Shown here piece after piece: positions 3,001 to 25,464 of a stretch of 64,000 nucleotides of DNA (positions are counted from its first letter, which is position 1; the number at the start of each line of letters is the position of its first letter). The stretch is from a virus. Both the position numbers and the translations under genes were made by a program. The stretch lies in the IMG/VR virus record IMGVR_UViG_3300034069_000823, positions 2,090 through 66,089 of that record; one strand, given 5' to 3'. Under the pieces are notes generated by a model that worked only from the letters and a program-made list of their open reading frames with translations, searched no databases and was not told where the DNA came from.

Positions 3001-4235
3001 AGATATTATCTTTTTTATGTGAGACAAGAATAAATATTGATGGTAGATATGATAGAAATAGAGGTAATTCAAGTAATTTAGTAGCAACTCCTACTAATTT
3101 TAATTTGATGAATATGATATATTCTCAATCTAATAATTTCTTTAATTATAGATCTCTAAATTATGATAAGTCTTCTTTAAATTCTTTTCCTAATAGTATA
3201 ACATGGACTAAAGAAAAAACAATTGGAGAAGACATAGATACTTGGACCAATATAACTATTGCATCTACTGTAGATTTAGATGGAGATAAAGGAGAAGTTA
3301 TAGCACTTAAAAACTTTAATAATGATATAATAAGTTTTCAAGAAAAAGGAATATCTCAAATTTTATATAATAGTAGAGTTCAAATTCCTACTTCTGATGT
3401 ACCTATTGAAATATCAAATAATTATAAAGTAGATGGTAAAAGATATATATCTAATAAATTAGGTACTAAAAATAAATGATCTATAATAGATACTTCTTGA
3501 GGATTATATTTTATGGATGAATTATCTAAATCTATTTATTTATATGGAGCAGAAGGTTTAGAAAATATATCAGATAGTTTAGGATTTCACTCTTGATCTA
3601 ATGCTAATATATTTAATAAAGAAGGATGAGATCCTTATAATTTTGATAATTTTGTAGCTTCTTATGATAGTAGACATAAAGATGTATATTTTACAAATAA
3701 AAAAGAATCTCTAAATTATTCAGAAATGAATAGACAATTTATATCGTTTTTTGATTATGGAAGTACACCTTTTATGTTTAACTTTGGAGATAAATTTATG
3801 GCTATAAAGTATATAGATAATAATCTTACTTTATGGGAACAGAATGAAGGAAGATATAATGAATTCTTTGGAGAATTTAAACCTTATTCTACTACTATAG
3901 TTGTTAATCAAGATGTTTTATATGATAAAACCTTTACAAATCTTGAATTTAGAGCTGATAGATGAGATACTGAAGGTAAGCTTCTTAATAAAACTTTTGA
4001 TACTTTAGAGGTATGAAATGAATATCAAAAAGGTATTGGAAACTTAGATAACATTTCTGTTAATCCTTTATCTTTAAAAAGAAAATTTAGAGTGTGAAGA
4101 GCTTCTATACCAAGAGATAAAAAGAACCCTTTAAATAGAATAAGAAATACTTGAATGTATCTTAAGTTATCTTCTAATAAAGAAGATTATAGTAAAAATA
4201 TTTTACATGATTTAGTTATTGATTATATCATTTAA
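3..4235 (+). CDS. Tail stabilisation/muzzle-type protein of crAss-like phages, 5'-partial, >=1410 aa; TGA read as Trp
   Basis: Track fragments 819, 1530, 2409, 3105 and 3726 are all in one frame, open from base 3 to TAA 4233-4235 if TGA=W (about 20 in-frame TGA). Readthrough gives KVYWLDGVNQPRVINI, GKWSEPIWLND and LKRKFRVWRASIPRD...RIRNTWMYLKL, typical of this crAss tail protein. Confidence 0.85.
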
Positions 4236-4246
4236 TAATTTATAAG

Positions 4247-6439
4247 ATGAATAAAAAAAAGAAAAGAAAAGGTAATATATATCTTTCAGGAGGTTTAGTT
4301 AATGCTATAAGTGGAGGTGCTAACTTATTAGGAACTATTTCAAGTAATTTAAATCCTGAAACTCCTAATGTTACACCAGAAGCCTCCAATACTCAAGCCT
4401 CTACTAATGATTCATTAATGAATGATTGGGAAGCTTGAAATCCTATGAAACATTATACTAAGAAAGACTTTGGTACTAGAAACTCTGATGTAGTTGGAGG
4501 AGCTATAGGAGGTGTTGCTCAAGGTGCTTTATCTGGAGCTTCTATAGGTGGTCCTATAGGTGGAATAGTAGGAGGTGCTTTAGGTGGAATATCTTCTATA
4601 TTTGGAAGTAATAAAAAGAAAAAAGCTTTAAGAGAAGCTAATAGAAAAGTAGATGAAGCTAATCAAAGAAGTATTAATAATTTTAATAATAAAGCAGATA
4701 ATATAGCTACTGAAACTAATTGAAATAATTTAGCTAATTATGCAGCTCTTGGAGGTATTTTACCTATAACTAATTCTGTAGAAAGACATTTAGCTTCCTT
4801 TGGTAATAATATATTTGCTTATGGAGGTCAATTTAGTAATGGAGTAACTTCTTTTAATACAGGAGGTACACATGAAGAAAATCCTCATGGTGGTATATTA
4901 CAAGGTGTAGGAGAGAATGGAGAACCTAATCTTGTTGAAGAAGGAGAATTAAAATGAAATGATTATATATTTTCTAATAGATTAGTAGTACCAAATACTG
5001 TTTCTGAAGTTAATTTACCTAAAGAATTAGCAGGTAAAACTTATGCAGAGGCTGCTGAAATTCTTCAAAAAGAATCTTTAGAAAGAGAAGTAGATCCTAT
5101 AAGTAAAGCAGGACTTAATATGAATCTTTCAAGGTTAGCAATGTCTCAAGAACAGGAAAGAGAAAGTAAAAATACAAATAATAGTTTTGAGCAAGGAGGT
5201 TTATTAAATAATGTATATGCTGAAGGAGGTTCTATGAATAATAAAAAGAGTTATACTGATGATGATATAATGAATTATCTTAAACAAAAGTTTGGAGATA
5301 AATGAGAGAAAGCTTTAGAAATAGTATCTTTAGAAGGAGGTTATAAAAATGGTAAATTTATAACTAATCAAAGACAAGTAAATAAAATGAAATCTGGTAA
5401 AACAAATACAGATAGAGGAATATTTCAAATAAGTAATGTATTTCATCCTAATGTATCTGATGAGGATGCAGATGATCCTTTTAAAGCAATTGATTATTCA
5501 TATAATTTAAGTAAACAAGGTACAGATTGAAGTCCTTGGGTATCTGCTAAGAAAGCTTCTTTTAATAAAAGTAAAGAAGTAGAACAGACTCCAGAAATAC
5601 CCTCAGTTGCTAATACTCCTTTTGTACCTAAACCAATAGAAAGTAATCCTTTTACTGTTAATGCTCCTACTACTTCTACTATTATTAATAATAATATAAA
5701 TAAAGCTCAAGAAACATTACCAGAGATTGCTCCTATAACTCCTTCTGTAAATAATAATACAGGACTTAATTTAGATTCAGATATGCTTAGGTATTCTCCT
5801 ATACTTACTAATGCAGGACTTACTTTATCAAATATATTTAGTAAGCCTGAAAAGATACAATTAAATAGAGCAAATGAAAGAGTAGGTGCAGGAAAATTAG
5901 GTAATTATATGAAATATAATCCTATGGATTTTGAGTATCTTGCAAATAAAATTAAACAGCAAGGAGCTTCTACAAGAAGAGCTATAAGTAATAATTCAGC
6001 AGGTAATAGAGCTACTGCTACAGCAGGTATTTTAGCTTCTGATTATAACTTAAATAATGCTTTAGGAGATACTTATACTAAAGTTCAAGATTTAAATAAT
6101 CAAAGAAGAAATGTAGTAGAAGAATTTAATAGAGGTACTAATATGTTTAATATTCAAAATGATATGCAAGCACAATTAGCTAATCAAAGAAATACTCTAT
6201 TAAATACTGAAATTGCAAATAAGGAGACTCTACTTAATTCTCAAGCTAATGCTAACAGAAGAAATTCTATTAGAGAAGGTATTGCTACTGTAGGTACTCA
6301 ATTAGGTCAATTAGGAACAGAAAATAGATGAATGAAAATAGCTCCTAAAATATTTGGAGGATATGATTCTTTAGGTAATTTTAATAAGAAAGCTTTTGGG
6401 GGAATATTACCTAAAATTTATAAAAAGAAAATAAAATAA
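4247..6439 (+). CDS. Virion cargo/ejection protein, 730 aa, with Gly-rich membrane segment and lysozyme-like domain; TGA=Trp
   Basis: Fragments 4247, 4445, 5120 and 5783 share a frame; 6 in-frame TGA; TAA at 6437-6439. Contains GGAIGGVAQGALSGASIGGPIGGIVGGALGG and FNTGGTHEENPHGGILQG...NLVEEGE...YIFSNRL. It follows the muzzle gene, as crAss cargo protein 1 does. Confidence 0.75.
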
Positions 6440-6440
6440 T

Positions 6441-8300
6441 ATGGAAGTAGGAATATATGATAAATCAGCATTTGCACAATACACTCCTTTATCTGCTCAA
6501 GAAATATTAATGCCTGCTCAATTAATGAGAGAAAAGCATGATAAGCTAGATGAAGAATATGGTCAAATTAATGATGAATTACAAAAGATTGCTTTTATAG
6601 CAGATAATGATCCTAATCCTGCTTTAAAACAAAAGTATAATGATTATTTAAATTCTCTAACTCAAGCTAGAGATTCTTTAATGGAGAAAGGATTAAATGC
6701 TAATTCTAAAAGAGACTTATTAAATATAAGAGGAAGATTTCAAAAAGATATTCAGCCTATTAATTTAGGGTATCAAATGAAATTAAATGATATAAATAAT
6801 TATAATCAAACTAAATTAAAAGATCCTACTTATATTGGACAAGATCCTTCCTTAAGAAGTGTATCAGATTACTTAGATAATGGTTTACAACCTTTTACTC
6901 AGAATGGTATTTCAGGGGCTTTAGTAACTAAAATGGCTTCAGATTTTCTAGCACCTTTTAGTAATGTGACAGACTCTACAGGATTAAAAGATTTATTATC
7001 ACGTACAGTAGGAACAGAAGAAGTTCCTCAATATATGGAATACTTTAAAAAGTTTGGTTATAAACCTGGAACTGAAGGACATAAGAAATTAATGGAACTT
7101 GCTAAAAATAATATTATAAATGCTACTGGAGTATCTTCTTGGGCTAATGAAGATCAATTAAATGCAATTAATGGACATATTAATTTAGCATCATCTGCTA
7201 CTATAGGAAAAGAACAATCTCAAGTAGTTAATAATAATGCTTGGATAATAGCTCAACAAAAAGCACAAGCAAAAGAGCAGGCTAATGAATATTCTCCTGA
7301 TGTATTATGGACTAACAATCCTAGGCAAGCAGTTCCTGTAGATAGAGAAGAAGAAAAAAGACAATTAGATAATTTAATTAAAAAGAGAGAAAATAAAAAA
7401 ACTGATTTAAGTAAAGCGAGAGATAAAATAATTTCATTAGGTGTACTTGGTAAAAACACAGAAAAAGAAAATATATTAAACAAGTTTGAACAGGGAGATA
7501 TAACTGAAGATGAATTAAGAGATTCTATATCAAAATTATCTCAAGGAAGTAAATGGAATAGTAATTTATTTTCAGATATAGTTAATAGTGTTTCTGATAA
7601 TTTATTTGGAACTGATCTAGATAATTATATAAAAGAAGTAAATAAAGATTTAACTAGAATATATGATCAAAGAGTTTCTGAAGATCCAAATCTTAGTTTA
7701 GAACAGTTTATGGAAGAAACTAGAAAAGATATTCAATATAAAAGCACTTTAATAAATAATCCTTATATAAGTAATAATACTGCTGTACAAGGCTATCAAA
7801 AGAACTTATTTGATAATTATATAAATAATATATATAATACAGATGCTATTGTACTAGATAAAAATAATAAAAAAGAAAAATTTAAAGATAAAAATAAATT
7901 ATTTAAAACTGTAAGAAATAATACTAATACAACACCTTCAGGTATAAATTTATTTAATCCAGATTTAAATGCTCCTTCAGCAGATTTTATTACTACAGAT
8001 AATGATGGTAATCCTTATAATATAAGTATACCTTTATCAAAAGGTTCTAATGAATATAAAATTATAGCTCCTTATTCTAATCTACTTAAAGAAGTAAATA
8101 AACCTTATGTTAAAGGTAGAAAAGTCAATATTAATAACCAAGAGTTTGAAATTGTTAGATCCTTTGAAAATGGAGAACCAAATTATAGTATAGTAGACAA
8201 AGATAATAATAGTATAGATTTAAAATCTATTGAAAAAGGAATACAAAGATCTTTAGATAACCTATTTAAAACTTCAAGTCAACCAATATCTAAATATTAA
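6441..8300 (+). CDS. Virion cargo/ejection protein, 619 aa
   Basis: Intact ORF, TAA stop, N-terminus FAQYTPLSAQEILMP; lies between cargo protein 1 and the giant proteins. No in-frame TGA. Confidence 0.7.
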   Translation: MEVGIYDKSAFAQYTPLSAQEILMPAQLMREKHDKLDEEYGQINDELQKIAFIADNDPNPALKQKYNDYLNSLTQARDSLMEKGLNANSKRDLLNIRGRFQKDIQPINLGYQMKLNDINNYNQTKLKDPTYIGQDPSLRSVSDYLDNGLQPFTQNGISGALVTKMASDFLAPFSNVTDSTGLKDLLSRTVGTEEVPQYMEYFKKFGYKPGTEGHKKLMELAKNNIINATGVSSWANEDQLNAINGHINLASSATIGKEQSQVVNNNAWIIAQQKAQAKEQANEYSPDVLWTNNPRQAVPVDREEEKRQLDNLIKKRENKKTDLSKARDKIISLGVLGKNTEKENILNKFEQGDITEDELRDSISKLSQGSKWNSNLFSDIVNSVSDNLFGTDLDNYIKEVNKDLTRIYDQRVSEDPNLSLEQFMEETRKDIQYKSTLINNPYISNNTAVQGYQKNLFDNYINNIYNTDAIVLDKNNKKEKFKDKNKLFKTVRNNTNTTPSGINLFNPDLNAPSADFITTDNDGNPYNISIPLSKGSNEYKIIAPYSNLLKEVNKPYVKGRKVNINNQEFEIVRSFENGEPNYSIVDKDNNSIDLKSIEKGIQRSLDNLFKTSSQPISKY

Positions 8301-8305
8301 AATAT

Positions 8306-11300
8306 ATGGCAAGTGTTTATGATGAAATAAATAAAATAAAAAGGGAGGGAAGTGATTATGATGCTTCCCTTACTGATTCTTCTAAAAGTAATGTTTCAAA
8401 AGAAACAATGAATGCTGTATTCCCTGCTTTAACTCAAGGACAGAAGAATATAAATAATTTTCAAACACCTTTTATAGGAGATAAAGTAGATCCAGATTTT
8501 GGAAATAGTAAATATGATAAAAATGTAAATTGGGAAGAGTTAGCTTATTCAGATAGAACTCTAGAAGATATAAGAGCAGAAAGACAACCTTGATATTCTC
8601 AATTAGCTAATAACTTAGTAAATACAGGAGTAATTGCTACAACTACTTTTGCAGATTCTTATGCAGGTACAGCAGCAGGTATTGTTAATATGGTATTTAG
8701 TCCTTATGATTCTAATAGTAAATTGTCTGATGTAGAACAAGGTGTAAATAAATTTGTTAATAATCCAGTATCTTTATGGTTAAATTCTATAAATAAGTGA
8801 GTAAAAACTACTAATCCTACATACCATTCTGATCAATATTCTCTTAATCAAGCTAATGGAGAGTGGTGAAAAAACTTTGGAACTTCTACTTTTTGAGGAG
8901 AAAATATTATAGAAAATGCAGGATTTACTTTAGGTATGGTAGCTTCTGGTAAAGCTTCAGGAAATATATTAAATAAAATATCTAATATAGCTGAAAATTC
9001 TAATATCATTAAAAAAGGAATAAATACTGCTATTAAAGAAGGTAAATTAACAGGTAATGCTGATAAAATATTTGAACAAGTTCTTTCAGGAAAAAGAAGT
9101 TTAGAAACTATAGGATTAGATAAACAATTAACTAATGCTGTTAAATCAATAAATCAAGCAAGTGCTATTAATAGAAATGTAGCAACTGCATTTGCTGTAA
9201 CAGGTGAAGCTAGACAAGAGGGTATAAATTCTTCTCAAGAGTTTGAGCAGGAGCAATTTATGAATTTAAACTCTTTACAAGGTCAACAAGAATTATTAAG
9301 AAAAACTATTTTAGATCTAGCTTCTCAAGATAATACAGAATATTTATTTAAATCAAATCCTTTAGAGGGAGATCCTTTACAGAGTATTAATCCTGAATAC
9401 TTAGATGTTATTACTGAAGCTTTTAATAAAAATAAAGCAATGGCAGAACAGGCTATTAAAGATGGATCTGCTAGAGTTGCAGGAATGGATTTTGCTCTTA
9501 ATTTTCCTATATTATTTGGATCTTCTTTATGGCAATTTGGTAAAACTTTTACAAGAGGTTATGACACTCAAAAAGGATTTTTTAATAATATTAAAGGAGC
9601 CTTAAGAGAACCTATTAATAATACTACTTTAGAAGGAAGTAAAAAAATAGTAAAAGAAGGTTCTGAATATGTATTTAAAAATTCTTTAAAAGATAAAATA
9701 GCTACAGGTCTTAAAATTGCATCTAATCCTTTAGTAGAAGGTAATGAAGAAATGTTACAATCTGTTGCTCAAGAAGCATCTTCTAAATATGCAGGAGCTA
9801 AAATTAATTCTTTTTTAGGATATAAATTAGATCCTAATGCAGAACAAAATAAAATAGGAGTACTTAATTCTATTTGAAATGGTATAATAGATACTTATTC
9901 AAATCCTGCTAGTTATCAAGAAGGATTTGCAGGAGTATTAATGGGAGGTGCAGGAGTATTAAATTTCTCTTTTTCTAAGAATGCAAATGGTAAAAGACCT
10001 ATAGTAGACGGAGGTGTTTGGCAGGATATAAGAGACGCTAAACAAGAAAATCAAGAATTACAAGCAGCTACTATAGCACTTAATAAAAGAGTTTCTGATC
10101 CTAATTTTCTTAACTATTACCAAGGTATAATAAGACATGATGCTTTTGAATCTAATAAAGAAGAAGCTTTAAATAATGATGATAAATTTTCATTTTTAAA
10201 TAATGACCATGCTCAACTTATTTCAGATATTATTATGTTTGATAAGGCAGGTAAAATACAAGATCTTTATGATAATATTGATAGTAATATAGAGAAGTTT
10301 TCTACTGAAGATAAGACAAAAATATCTGAAATTGCTGATGAATTAAGAGAATTAGCAGTTAATAAAGATACTGGTCAAGATATGTTTAGTAATAAAACAG
10401 ATGAAGAGATTGTAAAAGAATCTTTAAAATTTAATCAGGACCTTAAAGACAATGTAGACACTTATAGAGAAACTGTAAATAATCTTAAATCTATTATAGG
10501 TTCTAACTTTCAAGATGAAGATTCTTTTAATGAAATGGTTTATTTGTTTTCTCATATTGATAATTTAGAAAAAAGATATAAAGATTTACATACTAGCTTA
10601 ATTAAAAAGATAGAAAGTCTAAATATTCCTGAAATAAATACTAAATTATTTCCTATAACTTTGGATAATTCAGAAAAAAATCTTACCTTAGCAGAAATAA
10701 TTAATCAAGCTACTCCTTCAGAATTTAATGAGTTTCTATTAGGAAAATCTATGGAGGACCTTAAAGATTTTGACTATATGAATTTAGTTATGTCTTCTAA
10801 TAAAGCAGTATTAAATAACTTAAGTTCAGTTTTAAATACTATAAATAGTATAGCTAATAATACTAATAAAAGAGGAGACATAACAAATCAACAAAAAGTA
10901 GCTATAGGTAAACAAAAGGAAATAGCTAAATCTCTTTATAATACTCTTTCAAGAACCAAAGAAAGGGAAGGTATAATGAAAGATATTATAGATTTACTTA
11001 AAATTGAAGATAGTAGATCTAAGCTTACTAATACCTATAATATGTATGTAGGTCAACCTTATTTACTTAAGGAGCATTTAGAAACTGAAAAGGAAAAAGC
11101 TAGTCAAGAACAGGAAAATATAATAAATGGTTCTGTAATAGATGAATTAAAACAAGCTCCTTCAATAAGAGATATAAGACAATTAGTTGAAAGAGAAATT
11201 AATGAAAAGAATAATACTTCAGTCAATAAGATTATTGATGAAATGTCTTTATCTGATAATAAAAATTATTCACCTTTAGTTTCAGAATATAAAAAAGTAG

Positions 11301-13663
11301 AAAATCTAGGAAAACAAATTACTAATGATCCTGCTTATAAAAGTTTATCAGAAGATATTACAAATGGTGTAGATCAATTATATGATGTAGTAAAAAATAG
11401 GTCAAACACTTATGATGAGTTAACTAATCCTATTATAACACAAGATGATTTATCAGAATTAGGTAATAGAAATAATCTTTATACCCAACAAGAAAGAGAG
11501 GATATTAAAAATAATTTACTTAAAATACTTTCTAATATTAATAATAAAGATCAAAAATATAACAGTCTTAGTAAACCTTTTAAAGCTAATACTGAAGAAA
11601 AAGCTAAAAAGGAAAAAGTTGTAGAAAATACTTCTTTTGATAAACCTATAGGTAATATATCAAAACAAGAACTTACTAATATTAATACAAAAGATATTAA
11701 GGATAAATTAGATGATAAAAATAAAGTAATAGTCTCCACAGATAAAGTATGAAATAATGGAACTTTTGAAATAGATATAGATGCTTATAATAATTTGGGA
11801 GTTATTAAAGAGCAAACTAATCCTACTTATAAACCTGCTGTAGATTACTTAAAACAAAATGGAGCATTTAATTATATAAATAGTTCCAAGTTAAAAAGAG
11901 GAGATAAAATTTATTTTTATGCATCTGAAGATTACTGGAAAAATCTTATTGAAAATGGTGTAAGTGAGTCTTGGGTAAATGATAATAAACCTTTATTACT
12001 AGTAACTAATTCTGAAGATGGTACTATAACTAATAATAATAAAAAATATCAGGTAGTAGGTACTTTTAATTCTAAATTAAATAAATCTTTACATACTAAA
12101 GTATTAGAGAATCAAAGTAAAGGTATTGATGAAAATATATCAACAACTGTTGTTAATGTAACACCTGGAAGATTAGAATTTAATCAAGAGAAGTTACTAT
12201 CATCTTTAGAAGGTAAAACTCCTTGAGGAGAAGATACTGAAATACTATTTGGAATAGCAGATGAAACAGGTCAATTAACTACTAATCTAAGTTCAGTAGA
12301 TTATGGAGTTTTTAATATAACTTCTGATACTAATTATTCTAATTCTGGTAGATTATATTTGTTGACTAAATCAGCTTCTTCAGGAAATTATATACCTTCA
12401 GCAGTTAGAGTAAAAACTTTAAATGAAGTAGATTATTCTAAAGATATACCTTTATTTAATGAATTAAGAAACTCTGTAAATAAAATTACTAAAGCTTCTC
12501 TTACAACTAATGAAAATACAGTAGCAGATGCTGTTCATGATTTAAGAAATATTCTTTATGTAGGATCTAAAGCAGGAATTAAAATAGACTTTAAAAAAGA
12601 TTCACAATATAATAGAACTGATTATAATCTTGTAATAGATAAAAATACAGGAGAAAGAGAAGTAGTTAATATAGGATATTCAGAAACTCAAGAAGTTAAT
12701 TTAGAAGGTAAAGTAGATTATCAAAATATTAATAACTTTAATAAAGAAGAAGATATTACTAATAATATACTAAATGCTTTATCTAATATTAAAGCACCTT
12801 TTCAAGTTAATAGAAATTATATTAATGGTAAATGAAATGTAAGACAGTCTCTTGACTATAATAATGTATTAGTTCAAGCAGATATTCTTACTTCTAATCT
12901 ATCTAATAATTATGTAAGAGGAGCTTATTTTGTTGTAAATCCTTTAGATACTAATCTTACTGAAGTATTTAATACTAATACTACTGTTAATAAACAGAAT
13001 AATAGTCCTAGTAAAACTACAGTAACTAATACATATGATAATACTCCTAAAGGAAAACCTGTTAATATAACAGGAATTAATTCAGGAACTTATTATATAA
13101 CAGATAAGGGAGAAGTATTAAATACTAAAGGAGAATTAGTAGAAGATGTTGCTATTACTAATGTAGTAAAAATTAATAATTATATTAGTACTAAAACTCC
13201 TGAAGAATTAAAGGATATTAAATTCAAAGGAGAAGAATTATTTCCAGGAGGAAGTTTTCTTTCTAATAGAATGTATTATTTAATGCCTTCATCTCAAGTT
13301 TGAGATGCTACTACTAATACTTTATTTCCTAAAGATAGTATGTATGCTAAAGCAATTAATAACTTATTAGAAGAAAGAAAAAAAGAATCTACTAAAAATA
13401 CTTCTAATGAAGACTATAATTCTATTGAAGATGATTCTATTAGTGATGATGATGTAATAGTTAGTAGAGTATCATTATTTGATAATGAAGAAACTAGTCC
13501 TCAACCTGAAAGAAAAAGAAAAAGACCTTCTAAGGGAAGTGTATCTAAAAATATATTAGATGTTTCTAGTAACTCTTCTTTATCTAAAGAAGAAATACAA
13601 AATAAGATAGATAATAATAAAGATTATCAAAAAGACAATTGTAATGGAATTGCACCAATTTAA
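8306..13663 (+). CDS. Large ejection/cargo protein, 1785 aa (gene before vRNAP; positional equivalent of phi14:2 gp65); TGA=Trp
   Basis: Fragments 8306, 8936, 9941, 11795, 12359 and 13340 are in one frame, joined by 9 TGA; gaps were translated by hand with no TAA/TAG. Several Gly/Ala-rich hydrophobic segments in the N-terminal third. Confidence 0.8.
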
Positions 13664-13676
13664 TTAATAATAAAAT

Positions 13677-16600
13677 ATGGCACATTGTATTAATATTAAT
13701 AGTCCAGAATATATATCTTTAGCCAGATCAAGTAAATTAGGACAAAGAGAACTTAAAGCAAGAATTGCTACATGGCAAGAGCTTACTAATAATTATGATA
13801 GATTTCCCTCTATTGAAGAAGTAGAGGGACTTCTTGATAATAATTATTCAGAAGTTACAGAAGAATTTAAAGAAGATAAATACTTAAAAGAAATATTTCC
13901 TAATATAGATAATAGTTCCTTAAAAGATGCTATTTTAAATATTAGAAATAATAACTATTCTGATTCTTTAATTTCTTTAGGAAATTCTTTAAATAGATTA
14001 GATACAGGTAGTTCTATTCAAGATAGTTATGTAAAAGATTTTCAATATGCTTTTCATGCTTTAACTAATGAATCTGAGAAAAATAATATATTTAAAGCAG
14101 TTGCTAAGAAAGGAAGATTTTTTCAAGATCTTGCTGAATTATATGATGATTATATTACTTATCCAGAATCTTATAAAAAGTCTCTAAATTCTGATGTAGC
14201 TAAAGTATTTGATAGAATGTCAAATCTAAAGTCTGCTATTAATGATAAAGGTTCTTTATTAAGTAATTATTTAAGAAATACAGCAAATACTTCTTTAAAT
14301 AAATATCATAATGATAATCGAGTTTATAATCAAGAAACTAATAGAAGATTAGGTATTAAACATGAAGGAAAATCTCCTAGAGAAATAGATAATTCTATTA
14401 AAGATGCTATTCAAAAATTAAAGAGAAGTTATAGTGACAAGGTAGAAGTAAAAGTTTCTAATCCTAAAGATTCTAAAAATGGATTAGTTACTTATGTATA
14501 TGTTACTAAACCTAGAATAGAGGATTATAATGATTCTGTTAGTTCTAAAGTATTTAATAAAGAAACTTTAGATATACTTACAGAAAATAAAAATAAATTT
14601 TTTGAAACTACAAATGAAGAAAGTTCTGTAGCTCCTAAAACAACTACAGTAAAAAAATTACTTGAAAAGTTTGAAGGAAATGTAGCTAAATCTTTATTAA
14701 AATATATACCTAAAGAAGATATAGTTGTAACCTATACAGGAGATTTATTTTTAGATACTAAAACTTTAGAAGATGGTACTTCTAATTGGACTGAAGCTAG
14801 ATACTATCATAATAGTAATACTATAGATGTTTCTCTTTCAGGAATGTACCCTCAGACTATTATTCATGAAATAGTACATGCTTTAACTATTAATTATATT
14901 AAAGAAAATAGAGATTCTAAAAATGTAAAAGAATTAGAATCTTTATATAAATATGCTAAAGATAAATTAAAGGATGAAGATTGGTATGGTACTACTAATT
15001 TATATGAATTTGCAGCAGAATCTTTGTCAAGAAAAGCTTTTAAAGATAGATTAAAAACTATAGAACCATTAAAGTCTGAAAAGAAAAACTTATTTCAACA
15101 AGTTATAGATAAAATACTAGATTTTTTTGGATTAAATAAAAAGAGTAAAGAAAATTTATATCAACAAGCTTTTTCTACTACTGCTAGTTTAATAGTAGAT
15201 AATTATGAATATATAACTACAAGAGATCAATTACTTAAAGATAGAATAAATTCTATTACTGAGTTAGATGAATTTAATAGTGTATTTAGTGATTCTGTAT
15301 CTACTCTTAAGCCTGAAGATAGTCCTTACACATCAGCATTAAAGAGACTTAATTCTAAGTACTCTTTTCAAGAGATTAAAGATTTATCTTCTAATATTAC
15401 TTCTGCTTTTACAGATTTAATATCTTATTATCAAGAAGAAAATCCAGAATTATCAAGAGAAGAAGTTATTTCTAAAATTACTCCTCAAAAGTTATTTGAA
15501 GAAACTAGAGAACAATTTGAAATTGATTTAGAAGAATACACTGAAAATAATGTAAATCCAAAGTATATAGACAACTTACAAAAGATGTTAGATAATTTTA
15601 GTGATCTAGCTATGATGTCTACTCCAGAGATTAATTTTATTGAAGGTCTTAAGTTTAATCAAAATGATTTAGAAACTTATATATATGATGAAAAGCAAGA
15701 ATTAGATAATGGAGTATCTCAATCTGGAGATTTAAGTAATGAAGTAGACTTTCATGAGAATACTATTTTAGATAGTTGGCAAAGAAATTTTAAGTTTACT
15801 TCTGTAAATGATTCTTTGACTAATAAAGTTAAAAGAATTTTAAGAAGTATTGATGAATTAGATAAAAAAGGAAATCCTGTTATTGATAGTATAGGACATC
15901 CCAGAAAGTTAAATCTTGATATTATTAAGAATGATCTTTTAAAAAATATGCAAGGTGTAATAACTTCAAAAGATATGTTACCTGCTCTAGGTGTAATGGC
16001 TAAACAAAAACCTTGGGTAAACTCTATTATTAACTATCTTCAAGAAGATAATGAGTTATCTTCTCAATTTTATTCTGTTTTTAAGAAAGATTTTACTAAA
16101 CATGGTATAACTACTACAGTTCAAAGTAGTGAAGGTACAGTTTCTTATAAGACACATATTATTAATCAATCAAATAACTTATCTAATTGGATTGATAACT
16201 GGAAAAGTAATCTTGAAAATAGAATTATTTTTAATGATAATTATTCTGTTTATGATACTGATGGGTCTTTAAATATAAAAAATATTGAAAATAATATTAA
16301 TATACTACAAGATTTAGTTAAAGAATGGAATGGAATTGTAAAACAAAACAATATTGATTTAAGGAAAGATTTTTTATCAAGAAAGAATATAACTATTAAA
16401 AATCAATTAAATGCAGTAGGAATTAGTGTAGATAATAATGAAGTTAAGAATCTATTTTTAGATTCTTTGGTTGATACTAAAGAACTTAAAGATAAATTTG
16501 GAATAGATAAATCTAGTTTTAATTTAGATACTATATTAAATAAATTAGTATTAACTAATACTTGGGCTAAATCTAATATTAATAAAGATGGTATTAATTC

Positions 16601-19600
16601 ATTATCTTTAATACAAGAAAATAAGTCTAATTATAATTCCATTGCATCTATTATAGCTGATAATTTAGAAGATCTAATTGAAGGTTCTGTTCATGAAAAT
16701 GGTAAATCTTATTATACTTATTTACAACCTTCTTATTTATCAAAATTAACAAAGCAATTAAAAAATATAAAAGGAAATAGTAAAGAATTTAATGACTTTT
16801 TAGATACTCAGTTTAAACAATATGTAGGAACTATTTATAATGAAGATTCTAATAGATATAATATTTCTTGATTAAATGATTTAACAGATAAAAGAATAGG
16901 TTCTTCTAAAAGAGATTTATTTGATCATAAAGTAATTCTTAATTTTAATAAGACAGAGTATTCAGCTCTTAGTCCTATAGAATATCAAAATATGCTTTTA
17001 GTAGAATATTTTGCTAATAAAGATGTTGCTTGGTATCATGTGCCTATATTAGCAGAAGCTCCATCAGCAGAGTTTATTAAATTTGATAAAATTACACTAA
17101 ACTTTAAAGATAATATAGCAGATAAATTATTAGATTTATTTACTTATGAGTATAATAGAATTAAAGTAGTTAGAGCTAGAAAAGAAGGAATTAAAAATGG
17201 TACTATAAAATCAATAAATAACTTTGATAAAAATGGAGAAAAGTTTCATTTTTTATCTTTTCTAAATGAACATCTTTCAACTATTGATAGTATAGTAAAT
17301 AAAGAAGGTAAATTAAAAGATGTATTACCTACAGAATTATTTGATTTTGTAAAAGATGCTATAAAATATAATTTAGATCTTAAAGCAGATAAAGCTATTT
17401 CTTATATGAATAGTATAGGTCTTCTTGAAAAGACAGAGAATAATAAGTATATTTATTTAGATTCTTTAGGTATAAATCAAAGTAATTTACAAGATAAATT
17501 AGAAGAGTATTTTTATAATTCTTATTTTGCTACTGCTAATATTATTCAATTAACTTCTACTGATTTAGCTTACTATAAAAATGTAGAAGATTTTCAGAAA
17601 AGAAATAAAGAAATACATGCTCCAGGTACTATGGTAAATACTCAAGCTATGTATAAAGGTGAAAGAATAGGTAAAGATAAAGAATCTTATATAATTCTTT
17701 CTGATTATGAGCAGGAATCTACTAAAGAAGTATTAAATTACATAGATAGAGTTTTAAATAGTAATAATTTATTATCAGAAACAGAAAAAAAGAATATTCT
17801 TAGTAAGTACTATGCAAATAATGTTACTGATGCTCAAGCTTACAGGTCTTTAGATAGTGCTAAAACTGTAATAGCTATATCTACTGGATGGAATGATAAA
17901 TTAGAAAACTCTTATCAAAGACTAAAAAAAGGTGAATGAGATATTAGTGATTATAATAATATCATGCAAGCTTTTAAACCTTTTGTATATACTCAAACAA
18001 CAGTAGATTCTGGTATTTTGTTAGATCCTAATGATCCTTCAAAAGGAAATAGAATGATTAAAGTTCCTATGCAACATAAAAACTCTGAATCTATTTTACT
18101 TCCTATGCTAGATAAACAGTTTAAATCTACTAAATTAGGAGGTATAATGAAAGCAATGCAAGATAATAGTATAGATGTTGTAATGTTTGAAAGTGCAGTT
18201 AAAGTAGGTTTACAAGGGGTTTTAGATATAAATAACCTTAATAGTAGAGAAGACATTGCTAATTATATTTCTTCTTTCAAGGGAGATAATCAAGTATTTA
18301 AAACTATATCTTATGAAGATTATAAAATACAGCAACCTATCCCAGAGCATTTACAAGATACTTCTCAATTATTTGGTACTCAGTTAAGAAAATTAATTAT
18401 ATCTGATATAGCAGAAGATGCAGTATTTAAAGTAAGAGGTAAAGACTTTTCTAAAAAAGAATTATTATCTTTGTATAATAATTCTATTATTGAGAATACT
18501 ATTGAAGCTTTTGATGGTATAAAAGAAGAGTTTAAAGATACTAAATCATTACAAGCTATTATTGAAAATGAATTAATCAATAATTCAAGATATAGTAAAG
18601 ATTTACTTAATGCTTGTCAACTAGATAACAATGGAAATTTTGTACTTCCTTTATTTGATCCTTCTCAATCAGATAGAATACAACAGTTATTAAATTCTAT
18701 TTGGAAATCAAGAATAACTAAACAGAAGATTAAAGGAGGAAAAGCAGTACAAATGTCTAGTTATGGATTTTCAGATGATTTACATCTTAAATTTAAAGAT
18801 GTTGATGGAAAAGTTTCTATTGATTATATGGAATGTTATTTACCATTTTGGTCTGAAAAAATGCCTAAAGATTGGAATTTAAATGGTTTTATAGATCCTA
18901 AAACAGGAATAATGGATATTAATAAAATGTTGTCTGAAGGTATAATAGATGAAGAATTTCTAGAAGCTATATCTTATAGAATACCTACAGAGGATAAGTA
19001 TTCTATGTGACCTTTAAAGGTTAAAGGTTTTCTACCTAGAAATAGTGGAGGTAATATTGTTTTACCTAGAGAAATTACAACTATTACTGGTTCTGACTTT
19101 GATATTGACTCTATGTATATGATTCTTAAAGAATTTACTTTTAATGAAAAAACAGGTAAATTTGAAACTATTAAACCTGATATAAATAAAGATGTTTCTG
19201 AAATGAATACTCAAGAAAGAAATAATCTTTTAATAGATGTTATGAGAACTATATTAAGTCATCCAGATACAGCAGTAAAACAATTAAATCCTGGTAACTT
19301 TGATGGTCCTAAAATGACTGCAAGAAGATTAAATATATTAGCTTCTAATACAGAATATACTTGGAAACAATTAGAAAGTATGTCATTAGAAGAATTAGAT
19401 AAATTATCTTCTAAAGGTCAAATGGATATATTAGATTTTACTACTCAAGTTAAGCTTCATAAACAAAATATGACTGCTGCTAAACTTATTGGTATTATTG
19501 CAAATCATTCTACTAATCATGCTGTAAGACAAAATACTAATATAGAAATTAATTATAAGACTGAATTTAAAAAAGATCCTGAAAATAAAGGAAAGAAAAT

Positions 19601-21725
19601 AGAAACTAAAAATCCTAGATTTTATTTAAATGAAAAATTTTATACATCCTTGCATGATATATATTCTCCTGATAATAGTAGTTATATTTCTAAAAACTTT
19701 GCTTCATTTCTAGCAGCTTCTGTAGATGCAGTTAAAGATCCTGTACTATCATTTTTTAATTTAAATACTTTTACAGCAGATTCTGCTATGTTACTTACAG
19801 GACTTGGTTATAATTTCAATGAAATTGGATTATTATTAAGACAACCTGCTATAGAAGAATTAGTTGATTATTATGAAAGAAATTATAAGTCAGGTAAAAC
19901 TAAAGGTGTTGCTATTGATGATTTATTATCTAAGTATAAAAAGTTTTTAAAAGAGACTTTAAGTAGTAATTTAAATCCTGAATTAGATGTAAATCTATTT
20001 GATTTAAATAGTATGGCAGAACAAATTAAATTAAATTCTATCATTAAAGAATTTAACAGCCTTGAAAAAGAAGATAAAGATAAATTTATAGATGCTAATA
20101 AAAAAGATTTAGAGAAATTTTATGTATATCAATATCAAGTATTAAGTAACTATAAAAACATATTAGAAGTTGCTCAACATTTAGCAGAATTTGTTTCTTC
20201 TTCTAGGTCAGATACTGGTTCTGGAGGTGCAGGTCCTACTATTGCTGATACTAAATTTAAAATGAGAAAAGTTCTTAAAAACAAAGTTAATGCTAATCCT
20301 AATAAAGGAGAACCTCTATTAAAAGGTACTGATATTATAGAATTTATAGATAAAAATACTTTAAATAATAGTGATAAATTAAGAGAATATCTTAGAAAAT
20401 CTCCATTAGGATTTATACAAAGTTTTACTACTTTAGGTCTTCAAGCAACTGAAGATAGTTTATCCAAGTATTTTCCACATTATAATAAATATTTTGATTA
20501 TATATTTAATACAATGGAAGATTATTACTTGAAATCTAACAAATTATCAGTAGAATTAATGAATAAGATATATAGTGAATTTGTTACTTATTATATGTCT
20601 CAATATGAAGAATTCTCTAATAAAAATTCAGAGAAATTTATAAAAGATTTTCCAAATAAATTTTTAGAAATAAAAAATAAAGATGAAGATTTATCTTCTT
20701 TACAGTTAATAAAAAATATAAATTACATAAAACCATCTTCTGATGTACCTTATGCTAAATTAAAATTTATTTCTGGTGGAAGACTTTCTTCTAATGTAAG
20801 AGATACAATGATTACAGAATGGGAATCTTTACTATATAAGCCTGAATATAGAGATCTAGCTATTGATTTATTTAAATATAATTATTATTTAAATGGATTT
20901 AACTTTGGAGCTTCTTCATTTATTCATTTAGCACCTACAGCATTAAAATTAAATATACCTAACTTTGTTAGTAACTTAAATAAATTAATGCAAAATCAAG
21001 ATAATGACTTAAATAATAATCAGTTTACTGAAAATCAATTAAATATATTTATAGACCAATTCTATAGAAATAATTTAAGTAATAAAAAGTTAGTACCAGA
21101 GATAGAAGGATATAATGAAAAATCTTTTTTAGATAGTAAATCTAATATATTAGATAATACTAGTATGACTGGATATATTCAAGAATTTAGAGATATTTTT
21201 ACTAATAATGGTAATATTTTAAAATATGTTACTATGAAGATTAAAGGTAATAATGAATACTTTAAAATTACTAGTTCTGAATTAGATAAGAATGATAAAA
21301 TTTCAGTAAATTTTGAGCATATTAAACCTTTAGGAATTAAAAATAATTTTCTTGAATATGATTTTGATAATAGTTCCTTAGATTCTAGTTTATTAGAAGA
21401 TACCTCTAATGCTTCTGATAGAGAAGAATATAGAAATTTTAATCCTGATGTAGCAATAGATGTAGAATCTTATGAATATGATTCTAATCCAGATCCTTTT
21501 AATACTCAGAAATATCCTAATGAATTACAAGATCAATTTGATAATGCTTTTAATTTTATACAACAAGAAAATGAGTTTTTTGATAGTAAAAATTATGAAG
21601 CTTTAGATAATGATAATTCTTATGAAATTCTTAGTAGTGCTAATCAAGAAAGTAATAATCTAAACTCTTTAATACAAGAAGTAAGTAAAGAAGAAATTGA
21701 TAAATATAAAAAGAATTGTGATTAA
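13677..21725 (+). CDS. Virion-packaged single-chain double-psi-barrel RNA polymerase, 2682 aa, with N-terminal zincin-like domain; TGA=Trp
   Basis: Fragments 13677, 16992, 17964 and 19113 are in one frame, joined by 3 TGA. Catalytic GSDFDID (DFDID at 19095-19109), plus NVTDAQAY, SAVKVG, QLRKLI, YRIPTEDKYS and ASVDAVKDP motifs of crAss vRNAPs. Confidence 0.92.
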
Positions 21726-21726
21726 T

Positions 21727-24700
21727 ATGAAATGTCCTAATAAAAACAGTAAAGATTGGCTTAATATCTCTAATAAATATGGAGAGAATATAGCTTGGGC
21801 TTCTTATATAAGAAATGGGGAGGAAATTCCTCCCTTATCTTATGTAGATAATTGGGTTGAAGAAAAACTTGGTAAAGATAAATTAGAAGATATAAATAAA
21901 GAAACTAAACATCTGTTAGCAATTAAAGAAGTAATTACTTCTCAATTAGAAGAATTAGGTATAGGTGTTGGAGCTTTAACTGAATATGAAAGGAAAACAG
22001 GTATACAAGGTAATACTGTTAATGGAGTATTTGATCCCTCATCTTCTCAAAAGACAGCAGATGGTTTAGTAGAATTAATTAGAATAGCACAAAATAATAG
22101 AGGTCTTAAAGCACTTCCAGAAGAATTTGCACATTTAGTAGACGCTTCTCTAAATGGTATGGATAATCCTATATATAATAGATTAACTAATCTTCTTAAA
22201 GATAATAATATAGTTAAAGAAGTATTAAATCAAGAGGAAGAAGGTTCTTATGAAAGATATTCTTCTATATATAATAATAATGCAGATTTATTAGCTTCAG
22301 AGGCTAGAGCTAAATTAATAGCTAAGCATATTATTAGAGGAGAAGAAATTAAAGAATCTGCATGACAATCCCTTATGCAACGAGTTAAGCAATTATTTAA
22401 TAAGATATTTGGAAAAGCTGATTCTAATAATCTAAAACAAAAACTATATGAAATAGATAGAGAATATGGTAAGTTTTCTTCAGATTTAATGTCAGGACAA
22501 GTACAAATAAATATTGATTTTAATAATTTAAGAACTAAAAATTTATTATATAATGCACAAAAAAGTCTTTCAGTTGCTGAAGAAACCTTGAAAAAAGTAA
22601 TTGAAACAGAACATAAAAGATTAAAGATAGTAGAAGCTAATAAAAGACTTTCAGAAGATCAATTACAAGACTTAAAAGAAAGAGAAATTAATTTAAATAG
22701 GTTAGAAGATCTAAAAAATGAGAAAAGATATGATGAAGGTATTTTAGATTTTATAAGTCAAGCATATACAGATTTAAATACTTTATTAGATAAAATACCA
22801 GATCTTAAATTAAATAATAATATACCAACTTCTGAATTACAAAATACAGCTAAGTTTTTAAGAGAAATGAAAACTTTTATTGATGCTTATAGTACTAGAT
22901 TAGAGGATATTATTAAATATACTTTAACTGATGAGTATAAAAAAAGTAATATAGATATATCAGAACCTTTAAAAGATTTTACTGCTATATTACAAAGAGC
23001 AGAGATTCAATATAAAGAGGCTTCTATACCATTATTTTCTAAGTTTATTAAACAATTTACAGGAGATTTAATAGGAAAAACTATTAAAGGTAATAAAGTT
23101 ACTGAAGATTATATTGAAAATTTATTAGTAGAATCTCCTAAAGATATAGGTATATTAGATAGATGATTATTTTCTATGGCAGAATCTTCAGATTTATTAC
23201 TAAGACTTATTGAAAGACCTGTTAAAAATGCTAGATTTAAAGCTAAAGAAAAAACTGATGAAACTATAAGACAGTTACAAAAAGCTCAAGAAGATTTAGA
23301 AAAAGCAGGTTATAAAACAGATTTTATTTATGAAAGAAATTCTAAAGGTGAATTAACAGGAAGGTATATACAAGCTATAGATTGGAATAAATTTTATGAA
23401 TCACAAAAGAAACAAGAGGAATTATTAAATAATAAATATGGAAATAGAAGTAATTCATCTATTTGGTGAAAAGAATTTTATAAATGAAGAAACTCTAATA
23501 TGATTCAAGATGAGACTTCAGGGAAATGAGTACCTAAAGAGTCAATTTATTCAAACCCTAATTATACCTCTCTTAGTCCTGCTCAAAAAGCTTTTTATGA
23601 CAAAGTAATAGCTATTAAATTAGAGGCAGATTCTTATTTACCAGAAAATAAGATGAATCCATATTTACTTCCTCAAATAAGAAAAGATTTTTTAGAAAGG
23701 TTAAAAGAAGCTAAATCTCTAAAAGAAGCTAGAAAATTATTTGGATCTGGAATAGCAGATAAATGATTAGCCAGAGAATCTGATGATGAGTTTGGTAATA
23801 CTTATAGACTTCAAGATTTTGATGGAACTAAATTAGATTTACTTCCTGTATATTATACTACTAAATTAGATGATATGAGTCAATTATCTACAGATATAGT
23901 ATCTTCACTTGCTTTATATACAGATATGGCATATAATTATGATGCTATGAATAAAATAGTAGATATTATGGAAGTAGGGAAAGATATAATGGCTAATAGA
24001 AATATAGATGATACTATAGGAGGTAAAAATATAATTGAAAGATTTCAACATGGAGGTAGAACTATAGTTAATAAGACTATTAAGCCTAAAGGATCTTCTC
24101 ATTTTATGGATAGATTAGAATCTTTTTACTCTTCTCAAATATATGGAGAAACTCAAAAAGATCAAGGAAGTTTTAAATTACCATTTATAGATAGTCAAAT
24201 ATCTATAGCTAAGGCAGCTAATAACTTAAATCAATTTACAGCACTTAATACTTATGCTTTTAATTTACTTTCTGGTGTAGCTAATGTTACTATGGGAAGA
24301 ATAATGACAAGAGTAGAAGCTATTTCAGGTCAGTATTTTGATATAAAAGAATTAGCATGAGCAGATAAAACTTATTCTCTACAACTTTCTAAAGTAATTT
24401 CAGAAATAGGCAAAAGAAGAAAAACTGGTAAATTAGATTTACTTATGACTAAATTTAATGTTTTGCAAGATCATGAAAAGGCTATTAGAGAAATAGAGCA
24501 GAATAAAAAGAATATATTTGCAAGATTATGTAATTCTTCAGCTTTCTTCTTTTTAAATAATTGTGGAGAACATTATTTACAGACAAGATCTTTTTTAGCT
24601 TTAATGAAAAGAATGAAACTAAAAGATTCTACAGGAAAAGAAATTAATCTTTGAGACGCTTATCAAGTAACTAAAGGTTCTGATGGTATTGAAAGAGTTT

Positions 24701-25464
24701 CCTTAAAAGAAGGAGTTACTAAATTAGATGGTACTGAATTTACATCAGAAGATGTTGAAAAATTAACAAGAAAAACTGCTAGAATTAATCAAAAACTACA
24801 TGGTATATATAATAAAGAAGATATGAATGCTTTTCAAACTACAGCTCAAGGTAGATTAGCTATGATGTTTAGAAAGTGGATTGTTCCTTCTTTTAATAGA
24901 AGATTTCAAGGTGAAAATTATTCTTTTGATTTAGATGATGTAGAGCAAGGATATTATAATTCTACTTATAATTTCTTTAAAGTTTTATACAAAGATTTAA
25001 AAAATCATCAATTTAATTTTAGCACTAGATGAAAGGAACTTAATCCTACTCAAAGAGCAAATGCTTTAAGAGCTGTAGCTGAAGTAGGTCACTTTTTAGG
25101 ATTAGTAATTGCTTATGGTCTATTAAGTAATGCTTGGGATGGTGATGATCAATGGTATAAATCTTTCTTATTATATCAAATAAGAAGATTAAGAACTGAA
25201 GTAGGTGTTTTAGTACCTGGTCCACAAGTTTTACAAGAAGGTTTAACCATACTTAAGTCTCCTGCCGCAGGTATTAATTATATGCAGAATCTAATGAACT
25301 TATTATATATTACAAATGTATTAGAAGATCCTATACAATCTGGACAATATGAAGGATGGAATAAAACTCTTAGAGATATTGTTAAAGTAGTACCTTTTAA
25401 TAATACTATAAGAAGAGCTTTTTCTCCAGAAGAGGCTTTAAAATTCTATTCATTATCAAATTAA
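21727..25464 (+). CDS. Large ejection/cargo protein, 1245 aa (gene after vRNAP; positional equivalent of phi14:2 gp67); TGA=Trp
   Basis: Seven track fragments (21697 to 25282) share a frame, joined by 9 TGA; TAA at 25462-25464. ATG 21727 lies just after the RNAP stop. Hydrophobic C-terminal helices. Confidence 0.8.

Follow-up and report, generated by a model that had tools for sequence, protein, structure and literature searches.

Facing terminal cysteines probably link three giant crassvirus cargo proteins head to tail

The window analysed here is a 64,000-nt stretch of viral DNA (positions 2,090-66,089 of record IMGVR_UViG_3300034069_000823), which carries three consecutive giant genes, denoted D, E and F. 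Based on homology and gene position, their products belong to the 'RNA-polymerase module' of crassviruses, three giant cargo proteins that are carried in the capsid and ejected into the host; D, E and F are the counterparts of gp47, the virion RNA polymerase (vRNAP, gp50) and gp49 of crAss001, respectively. Conserved cysteines (Cys) are placed only at the ends that face a neighbouring protein and are missing from the two outer ends. Judged from this pattern and its conservation, D, E and F are probably joined head to tail by two Cys-Cys links, presumably disulfides, as a linear pseudo-polyprotein of ~5,700 residues. The links would connect Cys1779 of D with Cys4 of E, and Cys2681 of E with Cys3 of F.

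Terminal cysteines of D, E and F

The only Cys of D is residue 1779 (position -6), which lies within the tail SKEEIQNKIDNNKDYQKDNCNGIAPI. E starts with MAHCININSPEY and ends with SKEEIDKYKKNCD, and its Cys are residues 4, 1647, 1720 and 2681, the last of which is at -1. F starts with MKCPNKNSKDW and has Cys at 3, 935 and 946. The outer ends are bare, with no Cys in the head of D and none in the tail of F, and the tails of D and E are both preceded by linkers rich in Asp, Glu, Asn and Ser. These ends had been described in an earlier note on this DNA. When the genes were retranslated with TGA as Trp (W), its end of D, SKEEI...KDNCNGIAPI with the sole Cys at 13640, was matched exactly; the termini of the vRNAP were as described, and the start of F was present at ATG 21727. 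Both patterns that it had drawn were also seen, namely SKEEI...K-x-N-C after acidic low-complexity linkers in the 'donor' tails of D and E, and C-x-N-x-N-S-x-[ED]-[YW] at the 'acceptor' heads of E and F.

The pattern of terminal Cys and motifs in the window exceeds chance. Late proteins of the + strand contain 0.16% Cys versus 1.49% for the genes of the - strand, a ~9-fold depletion in late virion and cargo proteins. A Cys within the first 8 residues is found in 4 of the 55 open reading frames (ORFs) of the window, E and F among them, and a Cys within the last 14 residues in 5 of the 55, including D and E. The string SKEEI occurs three times in the ~19,800 residues of the window, twice in the tails of D and E. 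At the DNA level, the longest exact match between the D/E and E/F junctions is 12 nt.

Conservation across the Crassvirales

We compared these ends with dereplicated homologues, scoring the first 8 and the last 14 residues of each protein. Since the proteins had been called by the pipelines of others, they were sampled blind to the idea about Cys. Among gp47-like proteins, the C-terminal Cys was present in 14/16, and the N-terminus, as a control, had none (0/16). Of the gp50-like proteins, 81/88 had the Cys at the N-terminus and 86/88 that at the C-terminus, and the gp49-like proteins had an N-terminal Cys in 30/32, with the control C-terminus again at 0/32. The rate expected from the Cys content of the proteins themselves is ~1-4%. 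The earlier note had predicted for a linear chain that the first protein lacks the N-terminal motif and the last one the C-terminal motif, which agrees with the bare outer ends of these homologues. It had also named co-conservation of the terminal Cys in orthologues as the point on which its idea could fail; they are conserved order-wide, and the idea was not refuted.

The N-terminal Cys is located at positions 3-7, so that 2-6 residues precede it, and 0-14 residues follow the C-terminal Cys. More than 130 dereplicated proteins that share 22-50% identity have kept the terminal Cys, which thus persist down to 22-30%. The internal Cys lack such conservation, and the relatives P0041, P0006 and phi14:2 have none.

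In the case of IMG/VR, a query with a single F fragment found no related loci, and an alignment of 18 full-length gp49-like homologues (A1), in which Cys3 is an invariant column, retrieved them. Across 80 Steigviridae-like (crAss001-type) paired loci, the four ends gave 73/73, 74/75, 77/78 and 79/80 with a terminal Cys, all three misses being artefacts. Exactly one Cys was found in gp49 in 76 of 79 of the paired loci and in gp47 in 48 of 52. The pattern of -/C, C/C and C/- for the three proteins spans the closest relatives of the window, crAss001, phi14:2, the Intestiviridae and the Suoliviridae. In crAss001, the sole Cys of gp47 is at -2 (ALRCNS), gp50 has Cys5 and a Cys at -8, and the sole Cys of gp49 is Cys5. 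In phi14:2 (KC821624), the three proteins comprise 5,398 aa and only four Cys, each of them terminal. The gp47-like protein has its sole Cys as the last residue, the vRNAP (2180 aa) has Cys at 3 and 2179, and the gp49-like protein has its sole Cys at 3.

These data bear on the explanation that the pattern reflects chance, composition or a repeated DNA element at the junctions (a promoter, a translational-coupling signal or a duplication) with no role in the protein. Lys/Glu/Ile/Asn-rich peptides such as KEEI arise easily in a genome of ~25% GC, and the two junctions do share the 12-nt match. However, the junctions hold no longer DNA repeat, and the terminal Cys persist across divergent proteins while internal Cys do not. 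Furthermore, the Cys pattern is the same in crAss001, whose gp47 is encoded on the opposite strand and does not adjoin the start of gp50; this rules out an element of the gene junction as its cause. The explanation is refuted by the conservation data, and we give it virtually no chance of being correct.

Every exception that we examined was an artefact of gene calling. P0099 has a contig end and an in-frame stop; P0091 has an in-frame stop (Gln if TAG is read as Q), and its true start, MINIC, is upstream. The start of P0145 was miscalled, the true one being MSEISC, and the starts of P0072 and P0116 had been extended upstream. The gp49-like calls P0020 and P0032 are N-terminally truncated, as judged by BLAST alignment starts, and the misses in L040, L048 and L067 come from truncation or from translation with the wrong genetic code. 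Behind each 'missing' Cys that was examined there was thus a contig end, a recoded stop or a start called wrongly, and annotators of these giant genes can use the rule to check starts, stops and recoding.

Annotated starts of giant genes in GenBank are too far upstream in L090, L091 and L002. Examples are the gp50+49 fusion of a p-crAssphage relative, gp33 of crAss002 and the gp49-like protein of bajarodcaudo, where an M-x(1-5)-C head is found 18-34 residues inside. This head likely marks the true start in such over-extended annotations. Many distant gp49-like or polymerase homologues (P0033-P0039, P0072-P0112) carry extra Pfam domains, e.g., PF12705, PF18760 and PF08719, and some also carry several helicase-type families, with the terminal Cys still kept.

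Natural fusions of the three proteins

Fused forms of these proteins occur naturally, and in them the modules invariably follow the order 47-50-49. L003 has just one Cys in its gp47-like protein, at -5, and just one in its gp50+49 fusion (3,866 aa), at 6. The gp47+50 fusion of L004 (3,608 aa) is without the N-terminal Cys and keeps the Cys at -2, and the gp49-like protein, which is separate, has its sole Cys at 5. The triple fusion of L005, with 4,488 aa, has zero Cys. In the fusions P0071, P0109, P0110, P0121, P0115 and P0128, the outer Cys are kept and the junction linker is Cys-free in 6/6; P0121 has one Cys ~86 residues upstream of the end of its gp50-homologous region. The Intestiviridae (p-crAssphage relative, crAss002, cr8_1) have gp50+49 fused, with only the gp47-C/gp50-N pair left, and the Suoliviridae (cr118_1, cr56_1, cr130_1, cr7_1) have gp47+50 fused, with only the gp50-C/gp49-N pair left; the exemplars of both families are very divergent and their internal junction is placed imprecisely, so that this statement covers the termini only. 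By BLAST, the N-terminal ~100-185 residues of gp49 or ~230-285 residues of gp50 are missing from fused proteins, and hidden Markov models (HMMs) of the head modules described below match N-termini only, never fusion junctions. The head module therefore seems dispensable exactly when a peptide bond replaces the link. In L004, from an uncultured crassvirus, a ferritin-family gene (Pfam PF00210; L004:20834-21325) is located between the gp47+50 fusion and the gp49-like gene.

We considered whether each terminal Cys might serve its own end without pairing with a neighbour, for attachment to the portal or the capsid interior, as a packaging or ejection signal, or as a site of covalent modification. 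Fusion removes the termini, so any function of an end would vanish along with the Cys, and capsid-targeting and ejection signals are known at protein ends in other phages. Such separate roles, however, leave unexplained the bare N-terminus of gp47 (0/16) and the bare C-terminus of gp49 (0/32), as well as the changes of Cys number in twos and the Cys-free triple fusion. Moreover, the obvious partners, cargo proteins 1 and 2 (C1 and C2), have no Cys in the window. We regard separate roles of the ends as quite unlikely. Considering that the outer ends are bare, that Cys change in twos with fusion or splitting, that the triple fusion is Cys-free and that the head module is lost on fusion, the simplest account would be that facing Cys act as pairs that join consecutive proteins.

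A split gp47-like gene and interrupted polymerase genes

In L097, a close relative that also reads TGA as W, the gp47-like gene is in two parts with a genuine TAA stop between them. For P0162 and P0163, the gp47-like proteins without a C-terminal Cys, an artefact of recoding was considered; it was rejected for at least P0163 (L097), which ends at this genuine TAA. The C-part starts with MSNC and ends with KKNCPEIKP, and the N-part has one new Cys inside a non-homologous 330-aa extension. The polymerase has Cys only at 4 and 2688 and the gp49-like protein only Cys3, which gives 6 Cys in 4 proteins, i.e., two extra. The HMMs of the N-terminal module found no module at the new N-terminus of the C-part. 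Exactly between the two halves is a 73-aa ORF with a CDSC motif (L097:5186-5407), which could encode a third partner for the new Cys or be a mobile insert.

The polymerase gene is in two ORFs in 9/78 crAss001-like loci (L002, L011, L014, L015, L026, L027, L069, L076 and others). These breaks are next to or inside conserved motifs or codons, have endonuclease-type inserts and gain no Cys; in bajarodcaudo virus 1, the break follows GSDFD and an annotated endonuclease is in the gap. Since the breaks are inside conserved codons, an intron-like element fits better than two proteins, and the interrupted genes look like intron or homing-endonuclease insertions.

Head modules and tails

In an alignment of gp49-like heads (A2), C3 and P35 are invariant, and in that of the heads of 18 vRNAPs (A3), which share 10-57% identity, M1, C4 and P44 are invariant. 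In a comparison by hhalign, the profiles of the E and F heads proved homologous across 49 columns (probability 94.9%, E 4e-8). Residues 1-45 of F were modeled by AlphaFold2 with pLDDT of 90-94. In the predicted layout, an extended segment with the Cys packs against two short helices and the beginning of a third, and the invariant Pro35 is in the loop that precedes this third helix. The acceptor motif of the earlier note is thus present, although it is really the start of an N-terminal module of ~45 aa with an invariant Cys and Pro. Comparison of the F module with the PDB (Foldseek) gave no match at E<=0.001, the best hits of a wide VIA search (HMG-box-like three-helix rows, Z 4.6) were below a meaningful level, and a feature search of the ESM Atlas gave no usable match.

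As for the tails, Cys is the sole invariant column in the last 80 residues of E (alignment A4), and the last ~25 residues of D are the best conserved of its last 80 in three relatives (alignment A5). Within each clade the tails are conserved, whereas they differ from clade to clade: the clade of the window has an acidic stretch followed by K-[DNK]-N-C, one crAss001-like group has SQEERDQAVKCIAF, and the Intestiviridae have G-x-IS-[FI]-x-C. The SKEEI tail is accordingly present in the clade of the window but is not general, and seems to be the local version of a general arrangement. Complex prediction for residues 1-75 of E and 1736-1785 of D, with the window sequences only, gave a score of 0.26 (mark 0.34), which speaks neither for nor against docking; the conserved tails and modules would be compatible with it.

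Nature of the link and proposed mechanism

If the facing Cys are paired, the chemistry of the link would most likely be a disulfide, considering that each partner has one Cys, that no second metal ligand is conserved and that crAss001 virions use disulfides. Many inter-subunit disulfides have been reported in crAss001 virions, in which the three proteins are present (PMC10172136); virion presence and ejection of the module proteins have been shown by proteomics for crAss001 and phi14:2 only. Since only 2-6 and 0-14 residues overhang the link, the joint would stay almost linear.

Two other kinds of link were weighed. The terminal Cys could bridge neighbours through a shared metal ion (Zn or Fe, as in the Rad50 zinc hook) or by other thiol chemistry. 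The comparative pattern speaks for joint action of two Cys and not for a particular chemistry, a His is found beside the Cys in the clade of the window (MAHC in E, CPNKSH in several F homologues), and a metal clasp could form in the reducing cytoplasm. However, each junction has one Cys per partner with no CxxC, and no second ligand is conserved across families, as CITTNS and CAIIPQ of crAss001 and MACK and MSCK of phi14:2 have no His. The CxxC or Cys/His pair per partner and the four ligands of a zinc hook or zinc knuckle were not found. Together with the disulfides demonstrated in crAss001 virions, this makes a metal clasp unlikely.

The other kind is a peptide bond formed by trans-splicing or ligation, in a split-intein-like or native-chemical-ligation-like manner, of which the present ends would be a remnant or a part. 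There is a superficial likeness to extein/intein junctions, as the upstream protein has a Cys at its end and the downstream protein one near its N-terminus, and the fused versions indicate that a peptide-bonded polyprotein is functional. Intein halves, however, span tens to ~100 residues, far more than the residues beyond either Cys; a Pfam search of D, E and F revealed neither an intein nor a Hint domain; and virion proteomics of crAss001 lists three proteins, of 262.5, 276.9 and 154.5 kDa. Splicing or ligation is therefore highly improbable.

For a disulfide-linked chain, we propose the following course. First, the short conserved tail at the C-terminus of one protein would dock, under the reducing conditions of the cytoplasm, on the ~45-aa N-terminal module of the next, and the three proteins would be packaged as a 1:1:1 unit. 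The apposed thiols would then oxidise in the assembled or released virion. At infection, the chain would be threaded, largely unfolded, through the portal and tail as one thread, which would fix order and stoichiometry, and the host cytoplasm would reduce the links to free three separate proteins. We hold the chances about even for this fuller picture of a redox-cleavable pseudo-polyprotein, in which a cargo of ~0.6-0.7 MDa that includes an RNA polymerase would be docked by tail and module, locked by disulfides at 1:1:1 and untied by the host cytoplasm, and in which fusion and Cys link would be interchangeable solutions order-wide.

Several points weigh against a disulfide-linked chain. Conditions are reducing in the host cytoplasm and, in the case of gut phages, also in the gut lumen, which makes the timing and formation of disulfides questionable. 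The tails of D and E are alike, as are the heads of E and F, and sequence alone does not explain how mis-pairing, e.g., into E polymers, would be avoided. In L097, 292 residues separate the new donor Cys from the C-terminus, so that it is not terminal and the split case supports the rule less cleanly. Binomial P values for the counts given above ignore shared ancestry and, since homologous sequences are related, overstate independence; the independent evidence is a handful of separate fusion and split events rather than the raw counts. According to Drobysheva et al., fused polyproteins may undergo cleavage once packaged, and if so, function would not require permanent linkage.

Relation to known systems

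The orthologues gp47/gp50/gp49 of crAss001 and gp67/gp66/gp65 of phi14:2 (tags gp078/gp077/gp076) share with the window the gene block, the DFDID motif and the pattern of terminal Cys. In the window, by contrast, the genes are all collinear, TGA is read as W, and the SKEEI...KxNC tails and CxNxNS heads are specific to the clade. The fused crassvirus 'polyproteins' (Drobysheva et al.; GenBank, p-crAssphage relatives) have the same modules in the same 47-50-49 order, and a Cys chain would be their non-fused equivalent. They differ in that the link is made by a peptide bond and that both the N-terminal module and the junction Cys are missing, whereas the proteins of the window are separate and apparently joined. 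In the tail and portal vertex of crAss001, inter-subunit disulfides between virion proteins have been described (Bayfield et al. 2023), in the same virus order and with the same presumed chemistry. Those bonds lock a symmetric lattice and are seen by cryo-EM, whereas the cargo links would be end to end and are deduced from sequence.

More distantly, the ejection proteins of podoviruses (gp14/15/16 of T7, gp7/16/20 of P22, and the vRNAP and two partners of N4 and DEV) resemble the crassvirus cargo, in that several large proteins from inside the capsid exit ahead of the DNA or together with it, partly unfolded and in a set order. We know of no covalent end-to-end concatenation among the ejection proteins of T7, P22, N4 or DEV. 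The docking domains of PKS/NRPS assembly lines offer a possible analogy for the working of the link, already drawn in the earlier note, in which a C-terminal element of protein n is recognised by an N-terminal helical element of protein n+1, so that order is fixed. They are non-covalent, however, have no conserved Cys pair and serve catalysis rather than packaging or ejection, and no homology to known docking-domain families was found by Pfam in D, E and F or by Foldseek and VIA for the F module.

The earlier note knew of no description of such a link, and this was borne out: publications on the module proteins (the virion atlas PMC10172136, bioRxiv 10.1101/2020.03.07.982082 and a survey of polyvalent proteins) make no mention of cysteines or of a link between the proteins. 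The fusions themselves are already known (Drobysheva et al.), and we did not find the Cys-link rule described. New here are also the TGA-recoded clade with its pair of tail and head motifs, the homology of the head modules, their absence at fusion junctions and the relative with a split gene. The rule addresses the question of how megadaltons of internal protein pass through a narrow tail in the right order and amount in podovirus-like phages, for which it had been proposed in print that the exit order of the cargo depends on packing and mutual interactions. An order-wide sequence rule points to a concrete answer, namely that the three proteins, if the reading is true, would be one covalent thread, and it would account for the fusion of these three modules in some families and their separation in others.

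Gene block and genetic code of the window

D, E and F directly follow the genes for the muzzle protein, cargo protein 1 and cargo protein 2 (Table 1). In a tblastn search against phages, E matched the 'putative RNA polymerase' (gp50) of crAss001 with ~40% identity over 95% of the query, and F shares 33-38% identity with most of the crAss001-type gp49 relatives found. E contains the catalytic motif DFDID (two-barrel RNA polymerase DFDxD) at residues 1807-1811 (nt 19095-19109). PHROGs and Pfam gave no family for D, E and F, nor for residues 250-700 of E. The latter region, in the N-terminal third of E, holds a zincin-type HExxH motif (HEIVH, residues 397-401, nt 14865-14879); in phi14:2, a zincin-like domain has been reported on a neighbouring protein instead.

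Table 1. Coordinates of the cargo block and of the terminal modules in the window
Feature	Positions	Strand	Description	Basis
Gene A	819..4235	+	Muzzle protein (crAss_MUZ, MUZ_C), start of the conserved crassvirus cargo block	Pfam PF25731 (E 1.6e-193), PF25729
Gene B	4247..6439	+	Cargo protein 1 (C1, crAss001 gp45-like, crAss_CARG1), 730 aa, no Cys	Pfam PF25725 (E 6.9e-45)
Gene C	6441..8300	+	Cargo protein 2 (C2, gp46-like, crAss_CARGO2), 619 aa, no Cys	Pfam PF25712 (E 1.1e-27)
Gene D	8306..13663	+	gp47-like giant cargo protein, first member of the proposed chain, 1785 aa (TGA=W)	Homologues; counterpart of crAss001 gp47 by position and shared homologues, BLAST cross-checks
D C-terminal tail	13583..13660	+	Putative 'donor' SKEEI...QKDNCNGIAPI; Cys codon 13640-13642; preceded by a Ser/Asp/Glu-rich linker, about 13343-13582	
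Gene E	13677..21725	+	Virion RNA polymerase (gp50-like), middle member of the proposed chain, 2682 aa	Homology to crAss001 gp50
E N-terminal module	13677..13850	+	Putative 'acceptor', about 45-58 aa; Cys4 codon 13686-13688	
E C-terminal tail	21684..21722	+	Putative 'donor' SKEEIDKYKKNCD; Cys2681 codon 21717-21719; preceded by an acidic Asn-rich linker, about 21294-21671	
Gene F	21727..25464	+	gp49-like cargo protein, last member of the proposed chain, 1245 aa	Homologues
F N-terminal module	21727..21876	+	Putative 'acceptor'; Cys3 codon 21733-21735	

The genes of the + strand (1-25464) are open only with TGA read as W, and the genes of the - strand (25600-64000) are intact under the standard code. 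In-frame TGA codons number 9 in D, 3 in E and 9 in F. When D, E and F were aligned with the orthologues of crAss001 and phi14:2, TGA stood opposite Trp at 14/37 aligned positions, far above any other residue. The late genes use TGA 45 times versus 44 for TGG, and their stop is TAA in 6/6. Based on this alignment with Trp, the TAA-only stops and the near-equal use of both codons, the reading of TGA as W is sound. ARAGORN found no tRNA in the window, and thus no suppressor tRNA. The 67.8-kb record of the window, a fragment that is ~67% complete, contains no thioredoxin gene.

D and E are spaced by 13 nt (within 13661-13679). For F, the first start given by the ORF finder was an in-frame TTG at 21697, which overlaps E; it is probably not the real start, as the homologues favour ATG 21727. 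With this ATG, the TAA stop of E and the start of F are separated by one base (TAATATG, 21723-21729), an arrangement that suggests translational coupling at the E/F junction.

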